Position numbers and translations under genes: made by a program. The notes below the pieces were generated by a model, which saw nothing but the letters and a program-made list of their open reading frames with translations, searched no databases and had not been told where the DNA came from. A stretch of DNA of 64,000 nucleotides, taken from sequence record OL631481.1. One strand, written 5' to 3'. Position 1 is the stretch's first letter; every line of letters begins with the position of its first letter. The stretch comes from Escherichia phage ECML-183-2. Shown here one piece after another: positions 10,146 through 12,372 of this stretch.

Positions 10146-10224
10146 TGGAGGCGGGAATTGGATTTGAACCAATGATCTCCAGCATATGAAACTGGCGAGG
10201 ACGACCAGACTCCTCTATCCCGCT
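10146..10224 (-). tRNA. tRNA-Met(CAT)
   Basis: hand-folded cloverleaf: anticodon loop TTCATAT, T-arm ATTGG-TTCAAAT-CCAAT, encoded CCA; position 1-72 is an A-C mismatch. Confidence 0.6.
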
Positions 10225-10301
10225 ATTATGTATCCCGTGCTGGATTCGAACCAGCATCACAAAAATTGTGGATCTCTTATCCTGTAAGTCTAACGGGAAA
10301 C

Positions 10302-10375
10302 TGGTTGTTTCGACAAGAATCGAACTTGTGTCTCACGATTATCAGTCGTGGGTTCTACCATTGAACTACGAAACA
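10302..10375 (-). tRNA. tRNA-Ile(GAT)
   Basis: acceptor TGTTTCG/CGAAACA, anticodon stem CACGA/TCGTG with loop CTGATAA, T-loop TTCGATT, encoded CCA. Confidence 0.75.
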
Positions 10376-10438
10376 TTTAAAAGAATATCTCACGTCTGAT
10401 ACAGACTAACCTTTTGTCTGACGCATGAAATATTTAAT

Positions 10439-10515
10439 TGGTCGGAATTGCAGGATTCGAACCTGCGACCCTACGCTCCCAAAGCGTATGCTCTACCAAA
10501 CTGAGCTAAATTCCG
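10439..10515 (-). tRNA. tRNA-Pro(TGG)
   Basis: acceptor CGGAATT/AATTCCG, D-arm GCTC-AGTTTGGTA-GAGC, anticodon loop TTTGGGA, T-arm GCAGG-TTCGAAT-CCTGC, CCA. Confidence 0.8.
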
Positions 10516-10520
10516 TTATA

Positions 10521-10596
10521 TGGCTGGTCTGTCTGGATTTGAACCAAACCTACGACAGTCAAAGTGTCGTGTGCTACCGGACTACACTACAAACCA
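10521..10596 (-). tRNA. tRNA-Gln(TTG)
   Basis: acceptor TGGTTTG/CAGACCA, anticodon stem CGACA/TGTCG with loop CTTTGAC, T-loop TTCAAAT, CCA. Confidence 0.8.
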
Positions 10597-10694
10597 ATAA
10601 ATCATTTAATGAAGGGCAACCAGAAGAAGTGTGAGAGAAGGAGAAAACCATGAGTAAAAGAGAAAGTTTTCTGGCAACCCTTTATTAAATAATT

Positions 10695-10771
10695 TGGAGC
10701 GTTATATCGGATTCGAACCGATGCCACCGACTTGGAAGGACGGGATGCTGAACCGCTAACACTAATAACGC
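10695..10771 (-). tRNA. tRNA-Gly(TCC)
   Basis: acceptor GCGTTAT/ATAACGC, anticodon loop CTTCCAA (one stem mismatch), T-arm ATCGG-TTCGAAT-CCGAT, CCA. Confidence 0.65.
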
Positions 10772-10784
10772 TTTGTATATATTT

Positions 10785-10814
10785 ACTATACTACATTTTA
10801 CTATCGAATGTCAA
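10785..10814 (-). promoter_or_regulatory. sigma70-like promoter (TTGACA-N18-TATAGT) inside the tRNA cluster
   Basis: minus-strand TTGACA 10814-10809, 18 nt spacer, TATAGT 10790-10785; predicted start a few nt upstream of the tRNA-Gly 5' end. Confidence 0.5.
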
Positions 10815-11089
10815 TAGTTATTTAATAGGTGGGACAGTGACGAGTATCCCTTTGGGTGACTAGCCCTACGTTCGGTAAGCTAACTTAAAATAATACAAAA
10901 CCAAAGTCAAATATTATTCTTCGTTGCTGTCGATGGGAGAGCCGCTTCTTCTTTTGCCCCATCCAACCCTACTCCGGTCAAGTTTCAGGTAACTCTTTGT
11001 GTGATCAACACAATACTAAGAACACTGTCTTTCGAACAGACCTTGTGCACAGGATACGACGATCAATCACAGTGCCCTTAATGTTGTGT

Positions 11090-11164
11090 TGGTGCTCCCA
11101 CTCTGAATCGAACAGAGATCCACGGATTACAAAACCGTTGTAATAGCCATTATACTATAGGAGC
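11090..11164 (-). tRNA. tRNA-Thr(TGT)
   Basis: acceptor GCTCCTA/TGGGAGC, anticodon loop TTTGTAA, T-arm CTCTG-TTCGATT-CAGAG, CCA. Confidence 0.65.
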
Positions 11165-11255
11165 AAAGCTGGGACTCGGCAGGATTCGATACCTGCAATT
11201 CCAGAAGCCTCTTGGCGACTGGGGGGTTTACCTTAACTCTACAAGTCCATAATTC

Positions 11256-11341
11256 TGGCGATGAGTATAGGATTTGAACCTATATCGTTCTTTCGAACAC
11301 GGATTAACAGTCCGCCGCTTAAACCATTCAGCCAACTCATC
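11256..11341 (-). tRNA. tRNA with anticodon GTT (Asn-type) but type-II architecture
   Basis: acceptor GATGAGT/ACTCATC, anticodon stem GCGGA/TCCGT with loop CTGTTAA, extra variable hairpin GTTC-GAAA-GAAC, T-arm ATAGG-TTCAAAT-CCTAT, discriminator G, CCA. Confidence 0.5.
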
Positions 11342-11347
11342 TTAATT

Positions 11348-11435
11348 TGGTGGTGAGTGATGGAGTCGAACCACCCGAATCGCAATGATAACAGATTTAC
11401 AGTCTGCCCCGCTACCCCTACGGAATTAACTCACC
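11348..11435 (-). tRNA. tRNA-Tyr(GTA)
   Basis: acceptor GGTGAGT/ACTCACC, anticodon arm CAGA-CTGTAAA-TCTG, long variable arm, discriminator A, CCA. Confidence 0.8.
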
Positions 11436-11565
11436 TAAATGCTAATATTTAAATTCTTTTTAAAATAGCCAGTGTTCACACCACTAACTATGAGGTATCG
11501 GTAAAGTGGTTACCGCCACTTGCCGAAGATTTACTCTGCTAAAGTAAGCTATATTAAAAAGAACT

Positions 11566-11651
11566 TGGCGGTAGATGTAGGACTCGAACCTACACGCCGT
11601 TTCCGACTACAGTTTAGCAAACTGTCGTGGCTACCATTTCACCAATCTACC
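11566..11651 (-). tRNA. tRNA-Ser(GCT)
   Basis: acceptor GGTAGAT/ATCTACC, anticodon arm ACAGT-TTGCTAA-ACTGT, long variable arm, T-arm GTAGG-TTCGAGT-CCTAC, discriminator G, CCA. Confidence 0.8.
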
Positions 11652-11655
11652 AATC

Positions 11656-11746
11656 TGGCGGAAGGAGGGAGAGTCGAACTCCCAAGGCTCTTTCAAGCTC
11701 GGCGGTTTTCAAGACCGTTTTCGTCGCCACGTCGATTTGCCCTTCC
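11656..11746 (-). tRNA. tRNA-Ser(TGA)
   Basis: acceptor GGAAGGG/TCCTTCC, anticodon region ACGGTCTTGAAAACCGCC, long variable arm, T-arm GGGAG-TTCGACT-CTCCC, CCA. Confidence 0.8.
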
Positions 11747-11754
11747 ATACTTAT

Positions 11755-11784
11755 AATCTAACATAAAATAATGTTAGTTGTCAA
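11755..11784 (-). promoter_or_regulatory. sigma70-like promoter directly upstream of tRNA-Ser(TGA)
   Basis: minus-strand TTGACA 11784-11779 with a weak -10 about 17-18 nt downstream; tRNA 5' end at 11746. Confidence 0.35.
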
Positions 11785-11980
11785 TAGTTTTTTAAAACAT
11801 TTTACCATGAATGGTGACTCCACCAACCCCCGTTCTCAGCGAACGGTGCTCTTCGAGCATTTATGTCTTCTAATATAACCGTGGCCTTTGTTTATAATGT
11901 CTGACATACTTACCTCATTCTCTGCCACCATGATCAGTAGTGGGTTCAAATCACTTGAGCTAATTCATGTTAAAATGTTC

Positions 11981-12055
11981 TGGTGTCTTTACAAGGAATC
12001 GAACCTTGACTAAGAGTTTAGAAGACTCCTGTGCTATCCATTACACCATAAAGAC
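11981..12055 (-). tRNA. tRNA-Arg(TCT)
   Basis: acceptor GTCTTTA/TAAAGAC, D-arm GTGT-AATGGATA-GCAC, anticodon loop CTTCTAA, T-arm CAAGG-TTCGATT-CCTTG, CCA. Confidence 0.75.
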
Positions 12056-12057
12056 GT

Positions 12058-12132
12058 TGGTGGCCCTGGCTGGTTTCGATCCAGCTACCTATCGGTTATG
12101 AGCCGACAGCTCTCCCATTGAGCTACAGGGCC
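12058..12132 (-). tRNA. tRNA with CAT anticodon (Ile2-lysidine type or elongator Met)
   Basis: acceptor GGCCCTG/CAGGGCC, D-arm GCTC-AATGGGA-GAGC, anticodon loop CTCATAA, T-arm GCTGG-ATCGAAA-CCAGC, CCA; overall resembles bacterial tRNA-Ile2. Confidence 0.7.
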
Positions 12133-12342: not shown

Positions 12343-12372
12343 ATCCTAACATATGAAGGATACGTTTGTCAA
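12343..12372 (-). promoter_or_regulatory. sigma70-like promoter at the upstream end of the tRNA unit
   Basis: minus-strand TTGACA 12372-12367 with a weak -10; overlaps a 9 bp inverted repeat AACGTATCC/GGATACGTT. Confidence 0.3.

Follow-up and report, generated by a model that had tools for sequence, protein, structure and literature searches.

The locus considered here raises the question of which amino acid is carried, and what role is served, by a phage tRNA that combines an asparagine (Asn) anticodon with a long extra arm. It lies in a stretch of 64,000 nucleotides (nt) of Escherichia phage ECML-183-2 (record OL631481.1), hereafter the window, which represents a Phapecoctavirus-like E. coli myovirus, and it consists of an 86 nt tRNA-Asn(GUU) gene with an encoded CCA at 11256..11341 on the minus strand. 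In reviews the long variable arm is limited to the tRNAs for serine (Ser), leucine (Leu), tyrosine (Tyr) and selenocysteine (Sec) (PMC7609411, PMC7954030, PMC9976931), in agreement with a preliminary description of the locus which had named the first three of these. The gene probably encodes a genuine phage tRNA that reads AAC and AAU and that is a member of a widespread family of class II-shaped tRNA-Asn in phage and mobile tRNA arrays.

Architecture of the tRNA-Asn gene

The minus-strand reading of 11256-11341 is GAUGAGUUGGCUGAAUGGUUUAAGCGGCGGACUGUUAAUCCGUGUUCGAAAGAACGAUAUAGGUUCAAAUCCUAUACUCAUCGCCA, and ARAGORN calls it as tRNA-Asn with the anticodon gtt at position 34. The Rfam model RF00005 matches it over model positions 1-71 of 71 and scores 62.0 bits, well over the gathering score of 29, with E 4.8e-11, the alignment placing a 12 nt insertion (uucgaaagaacg) into the variable region. 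The minimum-free-energy RNA fold is a five-arm cloverleaf with an acceptor stem of 7 base pairs (bp), a D stem of 3 bp closing a 10 nt loop, anticodon and T stems of 5 bp each and an additional hairpin GUUC-GAAA-GAAC, while 100% identical gene copies are annotated as tRNA-Asn in other Phapecoctavirus genomes. ARAGORN, Rfam and the fold thus all agree with the preliminary description, which had proposed a tRNA with an Asn anticodon and an extra variable hairpin; the details of its hand fold (acceptor stem, CTGTTAA loop, 3 bp D stem, 10 nt loop, GTTC-GAAA-GAAC and CCA) recur in the minimum-free-energy fold, and neither ARAGORN nor Rfam refolds the locus as a type I tRNA-Asn or as a tRNA-Ser or tRNA-Leu that has a different anticodon.

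On the minus strand the encoded CCA occupies 11256-11258 and the discriminator G73 is at 11259. The anticodon GUU (tRNA positions 34-36, in the loop CUGUUAA) was placed at 11306..11308 by ARAGORN and by comparison with E. coli asnT, and tRNA nucleotides 25-43 (11299-11317 of the window) proved identical to those of E. coli K-12 asnT in a pairwise comparison. The variable region, which forms the extra arm, covers 15 nt at 11284..11298, as delimited from the sequence, the fold, covariation among homologues and a Tyr-type geometry, and comprises the hairpin at 11287-11298 followed by a 3 nt spacer GAU at 11284-11286. The D arm, GCUG-AAUGGUUU-AAGC at 11317..11332, is preceded by U8 G9 and holds three Watson-Crick pairs (G10-C25, C11-G24 and U12-A23) and a non-Watson-Crick G13-A22.

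Class II tRNAs are marked by a D stem of only 3 bp, an enlarged D loop and a 13-22 pair that is not Watson-Crick, and all of these traits are present here, the D arm being of the class II style where the type I tRNA-Asn genes in our set have a 4 bp GCUC...GAGC; pair 13-22 is also non-standard in 7 of 19 long-arm sequences of a seed alignment. With 15 nt, a 4 bp stem and a GAAA loop, the variable region likewise accords with the definition of a class II tRNA as one with a variable region of more than 10 nt that forms a stem-loop (PMC7609411). The gene is unusual because this class II shape is coupled to the anticodon GUU, an isotype outside Leu, Ser, bacterial Tyr and Sec. The type I genes asnT, asnU, asnV and asnW of E. 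coli share with it GUU, the loop CUGUUAA, G73, a 7 bp acceptor and 5 bp T stem and the encoded CCA, whereas they have a variable region of 5 nt rather than 15 nt with a hairpin, a 4 bp D stem with U8 A9 rather than 3 bp plus G13-A22 with U8 G9, and U1-A72 and C2-G71 rather than G1-C72 and A2-U71.

Occurrence in phages and scarcity in cellular genomes

Of the 715 records that a BLAST search of the 86 nt gene against sequenced phages returned, 225 match it over at least 80% of its length, and long-arm copies of 82-91 nt were found in Phapecoctavirus, phi92, T5-like, rV5-like and T4-like phages. Long genes annotated as tRNA-Asn are present in phi92 (Justusliebigvirus, 85 nt), Epseptimavirus (86 nt), Novosibvirus (85 nt), the Tequintavirus AKFV33 (83 nt), the T4-like Klebsiella phage Roth01 (85 nt), Mydovirus (85 nt) and Seunavirus (82 nt); the tRNA-Asn of Kuttervirus Maynard has a normal 75 nt. 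A scan of IMG/VR with a pattern consisting of the Asn anticodon arm followed by GGTTC at long-arm distance gave at least 120 loci, and these, combined with the phage loci and the window, provided at least 116 ARAGORN Asn calls, at least 87 of them distinct and mostly of 79-91 nt. Addition of a genome scan, which contributed 17, raised the number of distinct long-arm sequences to at least 94, most of them from IMG/VR viral contigs. In a wider scan that included type I spacing, the first 120 viral loci listed held 15 long-arm loci versus 96 type I calls, 45 of the latter in loci with at least 4 tRNAs. Among these listed loci, roughly one eighth of the viral tRNA-Asn genes with the exact anticodon arm GGACUGUUAAUCC, and perhaps a quarter of those borne in arrays, are long-armed, proportions that hold only for genes with this exact arm.

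A covariance model of the family scored its members from enterobacterial phages at 86-97 bits and the best non-member, E. coli asnT, at 60.2 bits, with phage tRNA-Ser(GCU) at 49-53.5 bits, E. coli tyrU at 50.6 bits and serV at 45.4 bits. One slot of the T5-like phages (Cys, Asn, T5.068, Asp) is filled by a type I tRNA-Asn in T5 and Bas34 and by a long-arm copy in AKFV33, KPP2018 and Bas26, and the two forms have therefore been exchanged as functional equivalents.

Cellular genomes present a different picture, as the long-arm pattern was found at only 68 places in 185,579 bacterial and archaeal species (one genome each), 17 of which hold a long-arm Asn call. Eleven of these 17 calls belong to dense arrays, where 8 kb hold 7-36 tRNA genes (Micromonospora and Verrucosispora provide examples), while most of the remainder are on short contigs of metagenome-assembled genomes. 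Long-arm tRNA-Asn genes are thus frequent on viral contigs while cellular genomes almost lack them, and this recurrence in many unrelated phages together with the scarcity in bacteria suggests a phage-specific tRNA design. The family represents a widespread lineage, or lineages, of class II-shaped tRNA-Asn in phage and mobile tRNA arrays. Origin from the host was considered and rejected, as BLAST against 5,426 E. coli genomes gave only chance matches of 35 nt and no near-full-length match (at least 80% cover) to the gene. Chromosomes of Verrucosispora and Micromonospora (loci L135, L137, L146 and L188) carry 23-36 tRNA genes per 8 kb, each array with an 89-90 nt long-arm tRNA-Asn, and these actinomycete arrays look like mobile tRNA arrays and not housekeeping sets. 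An 87 nt 'tRNA-Asn' of Azoarcus sp. L1K30 (L195, 114-200), also among the hits of the genome scan, is of another kind, being a type I gene with an 11 nt tandem duplication (TCCGTAGGTCA TCCGTAGGTCC) that spans the anticodon stem and variable loop and is unrelated to the long-arm class.

The sequence of the gene is already known and is routinely labelled 'tRNA-Asn' in GenBank, and it is the architecture, as a conserved and phage-enriched class, that appears to have gone unremarked so far. No description of a class II tRNA-Asn was found in the literature searched, which included phage-tRNA papers (PMC10264068, PMC11555353, PMC12482277, PMC12409363, PMC13056530) and the reviews on tRNA structure cited above, a search whose scope left most of the older T5 tRNA papers of the 1980s outside. 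A conserved, covarying and phage-enriched class II tRNA-Asn would be a natural exception residing in well-studied E. coli phages (T5-, phi92-, rV5- and T4-like). Annotation is affected as well, because isotype-specific models disagree with the anticodon for long-arm genes.

Selection on the extra arm

In the 87 distinct, unselected and cleanly parsed sequences the longest stem of the variable region averages 3.53 bp, as compared to 2.77 bp in shuffled sequences, and the hairpin is not attributable to chance because none of 300 shuffle replicates reached the observed mean. Of the 81 distinct sequences in a model-based alignment, 71, 75 and 67 respectively form the three inner pairs of the arm, for which GC, CG, UA and AU are all in use. 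All four arm pairs show double changes in the 19-sequence seed, which was picked for a 4 bp arm and is 100% paired by construction, so that only the variety of pair types counts; the arm strands are GUUC/GAAC in the window, GAAC/GUUC in phi92, AUCC/GGAU in Epseptimavirus, GUCA/UGAC in Roth01 and GAGC/GCUC in Mydovirus. The loop is mostly GAAA or another GNRA tetraloop throughout the long-arm set. The extra arm is accordingly conserved with compensatory changes over at least five phage groups and 94 distinct sequences, a pattern of base changes from which we infer that it is under selection. Inspection by eye of the Levitt pair (15-48) for covariation revealed no consistent pattern.

Amino acid identity

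The identity of E. coli tRNA-Asn resides in G34, U35 and U36 together with G73, a set that can be transplanted into tRNA-Lys (PMC9976931). All four elements recognized by asparaginyl-tRNA synthetase (AsnRS) are present in the window gene, and among its 87 long-arm relatives G73 is found in 85 and U1-A72, as in bacterial tRNA-Asn, in 56. Charging by a synthetase of a class II isotype has nevertheless to be weighed, and the preliminary description had indeed suggested mischarging by seryl-tRNA synthetase (SerRS), or action as a decoy. If the host SerRS recognized the extra arm and G73 and loaded serine, AAC and AAU would partly be read as Ser, or SerRS would be titrated. SerRS ignores the anticodon, and in bacterial tRNA-Ser G1-C72 and G2-C71 are conserved and the size and orientation of the arm matter, while C2-G71 is an anti-determinant for SerRS (PMC9976931). 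The window gene retains G1-C72 and has A-U at 2-71, and so departs from the acceptor end of tRNA-Ser, the anti-determinant C2-G71 occurs in 41 of the 87 relatives, and an acceptor stem that starts with GG was observed in 68 of 75 tRNA-Ser of the same arrays versus just 17 of the 87 long-arm tRNA-Asn.

The geometry of the arm points the same way. The tRNA-Ser of these arrays have a mean variable region of 18.1 nt and a mean stem of 5.5 bp, with modes of one unpaired nucleotide on both the 5' and the 3' side (discriminator G in 45, U in 25 and A in 5 of 75). The long-arm tRNA-Asn instead average 15.0 nt and 3.5 bp, with a 5' mode of 0 and a 3' mode of 3 (G73 in 85 of 87), values that lie next to those of the tRNA-Tyr of the same arrays (14.1 nt, 3.0 bp, modes 0 and 3; A73 in 50 of 50). 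The arm of the window gene has a 4 bp stem with no unpaired nucleotide 5' of it and three 3' of it, where the Ser modes are a stem of 5-6 bp with one unpaired nucleotide at either side, with the caveat that the phage's own tRNA-Ser(GCU) likewise has only a 4 bp arm. The extra arm is of the Tyr type and not of the Ser type. With regard to tyrosine itself, A73 is a critical determinant for tyrosyl-tRNA synthetase (TyrRS) and G73 is an anti-determinant for both TyrRS and leucyl-tRNA synthetase (LeuRS) (PMC9976931); the window gene has G73 and GUU where tRNA-Tyr has A73 and GUA. Its discriminator suits Asn and Ser, not Tyr or Leu, and the Ser elements are only partly there. The combination of a Tyr-type arm with the anti-determinant G73 favours correct charging by AsnRS, and the gene is most likely, as judged from its identity elements, a working and correctly charged asparagine tRNA and not one mischarged with serine.

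Several observations weigh against this assignment. Of the five nucleotides of the acceptor and D stems on which E. coli SerRS relies, four are retained by the window copy, which holds G1-C72, U3-A70, C11-G24, G73 and U8 G9 in common with E. coli serV, whose acceptor strand GGUGAGG is resembled by its own GAUGAGU. Its arm is also equal in size to that of the phage's tRNA-Ser(GCU), a gene of 86 nt at 11566..11651 on the minus strand (called by ARAGORN), 225 nt upstream, whose variable arm consists of a 4 bp stem closed by a GAAA loop and is preceded by a single unpaired nucleotide, and which has G1-C72 and G2-C71; the two genes agree in total length and in loop. The long variable arm, G73, G1-C72, C11-G24 and U8 G9 are all features of class II tRNA-Ser, from which the window gene is set apart by GUU, A2-U71 and its arm geometry. 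Class IIb synthetases approach the tRNA from the side of the variable loop, as in structures of AspRS with tRNA-Asp, and so the extra arm could hinder AsnRS; the family bears on whether a class IIb synthetase accepts a class II tRNA. In the literature searched we found no aminoacylation or expression experiment on any long-arm tRNA-Asn.

Mischarging has precedents in the nematode nev-tRNAs (Hamashima et al. 2012, PMC3333845) and in the allo-tRNAs (Mukai et al. 2017, PMC5389517), which are lineage-specific gene families that likewise couple a class II shape to the anticodon of a type I amino acid. The nev-tRNAs, however, keep Leu determinants and are charged with Leu (PMC3333845), and the allo-tRNAs combine Ser or Ala identity with an 8/4 or 9/3 arrangement of the acceptor/T helices (PMC5389517), whereas the window gene has a 7 bp acceptor and a 5 bp T stem. 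As the anticodon is the main determinant for AsnRS and the discriminator fits, anticodon and identity most likely agree in the window tRNA, unlike in nev-tRNAs and allo-tRNAs. Proteome-wide replacement of Asn by Ser would, moreover, seem costly across many phage families. In view of the arm geometry, A2-U71, C2-G71 in the relatives and the complete and conserved set of Asn identity elements, we regard mischarging by SerRS as very improbable, and the earlier suggestion of mischarging or of a decoy finds no support in these features.

Origin of the extra arm

An asparagine tRNA with a Tyr-type arm may owe that arm to descent. It could be an inherited relic without adaptive role, in which duplication of a class II tRNA within a phage array, tRNA-Tyr(GUA) being the most plausible parent, was followed by a switch of identity through the changes A36U and A73G, while structural co-adaptation preserved the arm along with the D arm that fits it in a molecule with ordinary asparagine tRNA function; this account appears to us rather unlikely. 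It is consistent with the arm geometry, which equals that of the same-array tRNA-Tyr (5' mode 0, stem of about 3-3.5 bp, 3' mode 3), and with the resemblance to bacterial tRNA-Tyr(GUA) in general (0-1 nt 5', 3-4 bp stem, 3-4 nt loop, about 3 nt 3', short D stem, G34 U35), which differs in having A36, and A73 in 50 of 50 members of our set, as compared to U36 and G73 in the window gene. The Tyr and Asn anticodons are only one base apart. Several long-arm subfamilies also possess D arms like that of bacterial tRNA-Tyr, for example CCCGAGUUGGUAGCAGGG.

Profiles in which the anticodon loop was masked placed 39 of 94 long-arm bodies nearest Tyr, the others falling nearest to Ser (20), Leu (13), Lys (12) and type I Asn (9); the scores averaged 18.4 bits against Tyr, 15.3 bits against Ser and 10.3 bits against type I Asn. 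For the window copy itself, however, the best-scoring profiles are those of Lys and Ser and not that of Tyr. In the window a tRNA-Tyr(GUA) gene of the same direction (11348..11435, minus strand; Rfam match at 11351-11435 with 39 bits, missed by ARAGORN) ends 6 nt upstream of the Asn gene. It has an unusual D arm, and its acceptor stem, GGUGAGU, is one pair apart from the GAUGAGU of the Asn gene. Yet among the neighbours of long-arm genes Tyr is only mildly enriched (9 of about 110 versus a background of 4.4%), and many members have U1-A72 and a UCC... acceptor stem that is typical of bacterial tRNA-Asn. Descent from tRNA-Tyr without adaptive role would also leave unexplained the frequency in phages as against the near-absence from cellular tRNA sets, and the long arms on several other type I isotypes of phage arrays. 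A shift from Tyr to Asn through A36U and A73G is nonetheless plausible for part of the family, and the family bears on identity shifts of tRNAs in fast-evolving phage arrays. Were the arm merely a relic, the finding would be a modest curiosity.

Two narrower proposals were considered and rejected. A recent duplication of the neighbouring tRNA-Ser(GCU) with a change of C35 to U is contradicted by an identity of 65%, which is like that to Tyr (63%) and to other class II tRNAs, and by an anticodon arm equal to that of the host tRNA-Asn, while Tyr as a preferred neighbour was discarded as its enrichment is weak.

Possible role during infection

The reading preferred here, that of a genuine tRNA for AAC and AAU, would entail joint transcription of the block Ser, Ser, Tyr, Asn, Thr, in that order, and normal processing of the tRNA-Asn, its CCA being encoded. 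The host AsnRS would then charge the long-arm tRNA with asparagine by means of the four identity elements and the host-identical anticodon arm, G73 and U36 would keep off TyrRS and LeuRS, the short Tyr-type arm and A2-U71 would keep off SerRS, and the charged tRNA would supply Asn decoding during infection. Phage tRNAs replace host tRNAs that have been destroyed by defence nucleases, as seen for the tRNA-Lys, tRNA-Thr and tRNA-Asn of T5 against PARIS AriB, for tRNA-Tyr against retron-Eco7 and for tRNA-Lys against PrrC. Similarly, the window gene is borne in an array, its isotype, Asn GUU, is cleaved by AriB, and it lies beside a tRNA-Thr(UGU), another AriB target. PARIS AriB cuts the host tRNA-Asn between nucleotides 40 and 41, the Lys, Thr and Asn tRNAs of T5 jointly restore growth under PARIS, and an AlphaFold 3 model of AriB with tRNA-Lys(UUU) has a contact at D-loop nucleotides 16-17 (PMC12409363).

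Known escape tRNAs carry substitutions in the anticodon stem-loop or the D loop (PMC12409363), whereas the window copy keeps the anticodon arm of the host, including the AriB site UAAUC|C, and differs in its D arm and extra arm and hence in overall shape; the extra arm emerges beside the strand that AriB cleaves. As AsnRS reads the whole anticodon, a change of shape rather than of the loop would be a reasonable route to resistance. AsnRS would forbid changes in the anticodon loop, the extra arm and remodelled D arm would alter the shape of the tRNA instead, and tRNA-targeting defence nucleases such as PARIS AriB might consequently handle the long-arm tRNA poorly. Such shape-based escape from host tRNA nucleases is put forward as the leading, though tentative, proposal for the retention of the arm, which we hold to be possible rather than likely, and it would bear on tRNA shape versus anticodon-loop sequence as protection from immune tRNases.

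A number of findings speak against it. There is no substitution at the AriB site of the window copy, so that any protection would have to come from shape alone, and the tRNA-Asn genes of T5 and Bas34 in the PARIS study (PMC12409363) are of type I: that of T5 (L201 6953-7030; NC_005859 33952-34029) has 78 nt, a loop UUGUUAA and only three of five standard anticodon-stem pairs, and that of Bas34 (SelmaRatti) has 77 nt. Long arms are also present on the Cys, Trp, Glu and Ile(UAU) tRNAs of these arrays, and Cys, Trp and Glu are not known AriB targets. At least nine viral contigs carry a type I and a long-arm tRNA-Asn together, which argues against simple redundancy.

As a further alternative, the tRNA might take no part in translation and act chiefly as a mimic, binding and tying up a nuclease or modification enzyme with which the host targets tRNAs, and so shield host or phage tRNAs. 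Overexpressed viral tRNAs might inhibit AriB by competition (PMC12409363), and the exact host anticodon arm with its AriB site has been kept, as would be expected of bait. The acceptor stem, G73, CCA, T arm and anticodon loop are, however, all aminoacylatable and ribosome-compatible in the 87 sequences, which a pure decoy would not need in full, and we regard this role as improbable.

The mismatched anticodon stem of T5 tRNA-Asn represents a departure from the host tRNA of another kind than the long arm. The T5 tRNA-Asn of PMC12409363 was considered as a long-arm homologue and rejected, being a 78 nt type I gene in a paper that is silent on long-arm copies, and a GenBank note that T5 tRNA-Asn does not become an amber suppressor does not apply to long-arm copies as the T5 gene is of type I.

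A broader and still more speculative proposal is that a hidden class of correctly charged tRNAs resides in phage and mobile arrays, giving a class II shape to amino acids for which cells use type I tRNAs only, and that this shape would evade or out-compete host defence nucleases where the anticodon loop is read by the synthetase and so cannot be mutated; we regard this as doubtful. Asn is the most frequent of the isotypes concerned.

Long arms on normally type I isotypes were encountered in distinct sequences for Cys(GCA) (at least 7), Thr(UGU) (at least 7), Ile(UAU) (at least 8), Trp (at least 4), Glu (at least 4) and Lys(UUU) (at least 2). Examples among the viral loci L010-L129 are L014 9032-9115 and L022 4406-4492, and a further one is L152 4198-4287. 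A Seunavirus tRNA-Lys is annotated at 87 nt (L008 154-240).

The tRNA cluster and neighbouring elements

At least 12 tRNA genes are clustered on the minus strand at 10146-12132, ten of them called by ARAGORN, and 323 phage records contain matches to this 2.1 kb cluster, with 97-99% identity in the best of them; in phage anhysbys the genes for spanin, terminase and portal lie downstream of it. A tRNA-Ser(UGA)-like gene with the loop CUUGAAA lies at 11660-11746 (minus strand) and is recognized by Rfam only, ARAGORN giving no call. The Rfam tRNA-Sec model scores it at 37.4 bits, under the gathering score of 47, and its counterpart in phi92 bears the annotation of a pseudo tRNA-Ser. Downstream, the Asn gene is followed next by the tRNA-Thr(UGU) at 11090..11164 (minus strand; ARAGORN and Rfam). 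Between tRNA-Ile and tRNA-Met, a weak tRNA-like match at 10231-10299 (minus strand), at 28.8 bits just under the Rfam gathering score, may be a decayed tRNA gene.

A consensus scan placed promoter-like TTGACA-N18 sites before tRNA blocks at 12343-12372, 11755-11784 and 10785-10814 on the minus strand, the number of such sites not being above shuffle expectation. The second of them, TTGACA and TAGATT with an 18 nt spacing at 11755..11784, is upstream of the Ser-Ser-Tyr-Asn-Thr block and is a probable start of a polycistronic tRNA transcript, which is offered as a lead only. The sites at 11784 and 10814 have a common context, AACTATTGACA, and the record of a relative marks a repeat at the corresponding place. 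A terminator-like hairpin follows the cluster at 10030-10012.

Directly 3' of tRNA-Asn, a tRNA-like element at 11165-11255 (minus strand) is homologous to 'rna3' of T5, a 'putative tRNA-like RNA'. It contains an invariant TGTAGAGTTAA and a T-arm-like GCAGGTATCGAATCCTGC and folds at -27.7 kcal/mol (z -2.7). Homologues sit 3' of tRNA-Asn in phi92 and AKFV33 too, and the module of tRNA-Asn plus RNA3-like element is kept with either a type I (T5) or a long-arm Asn gene.

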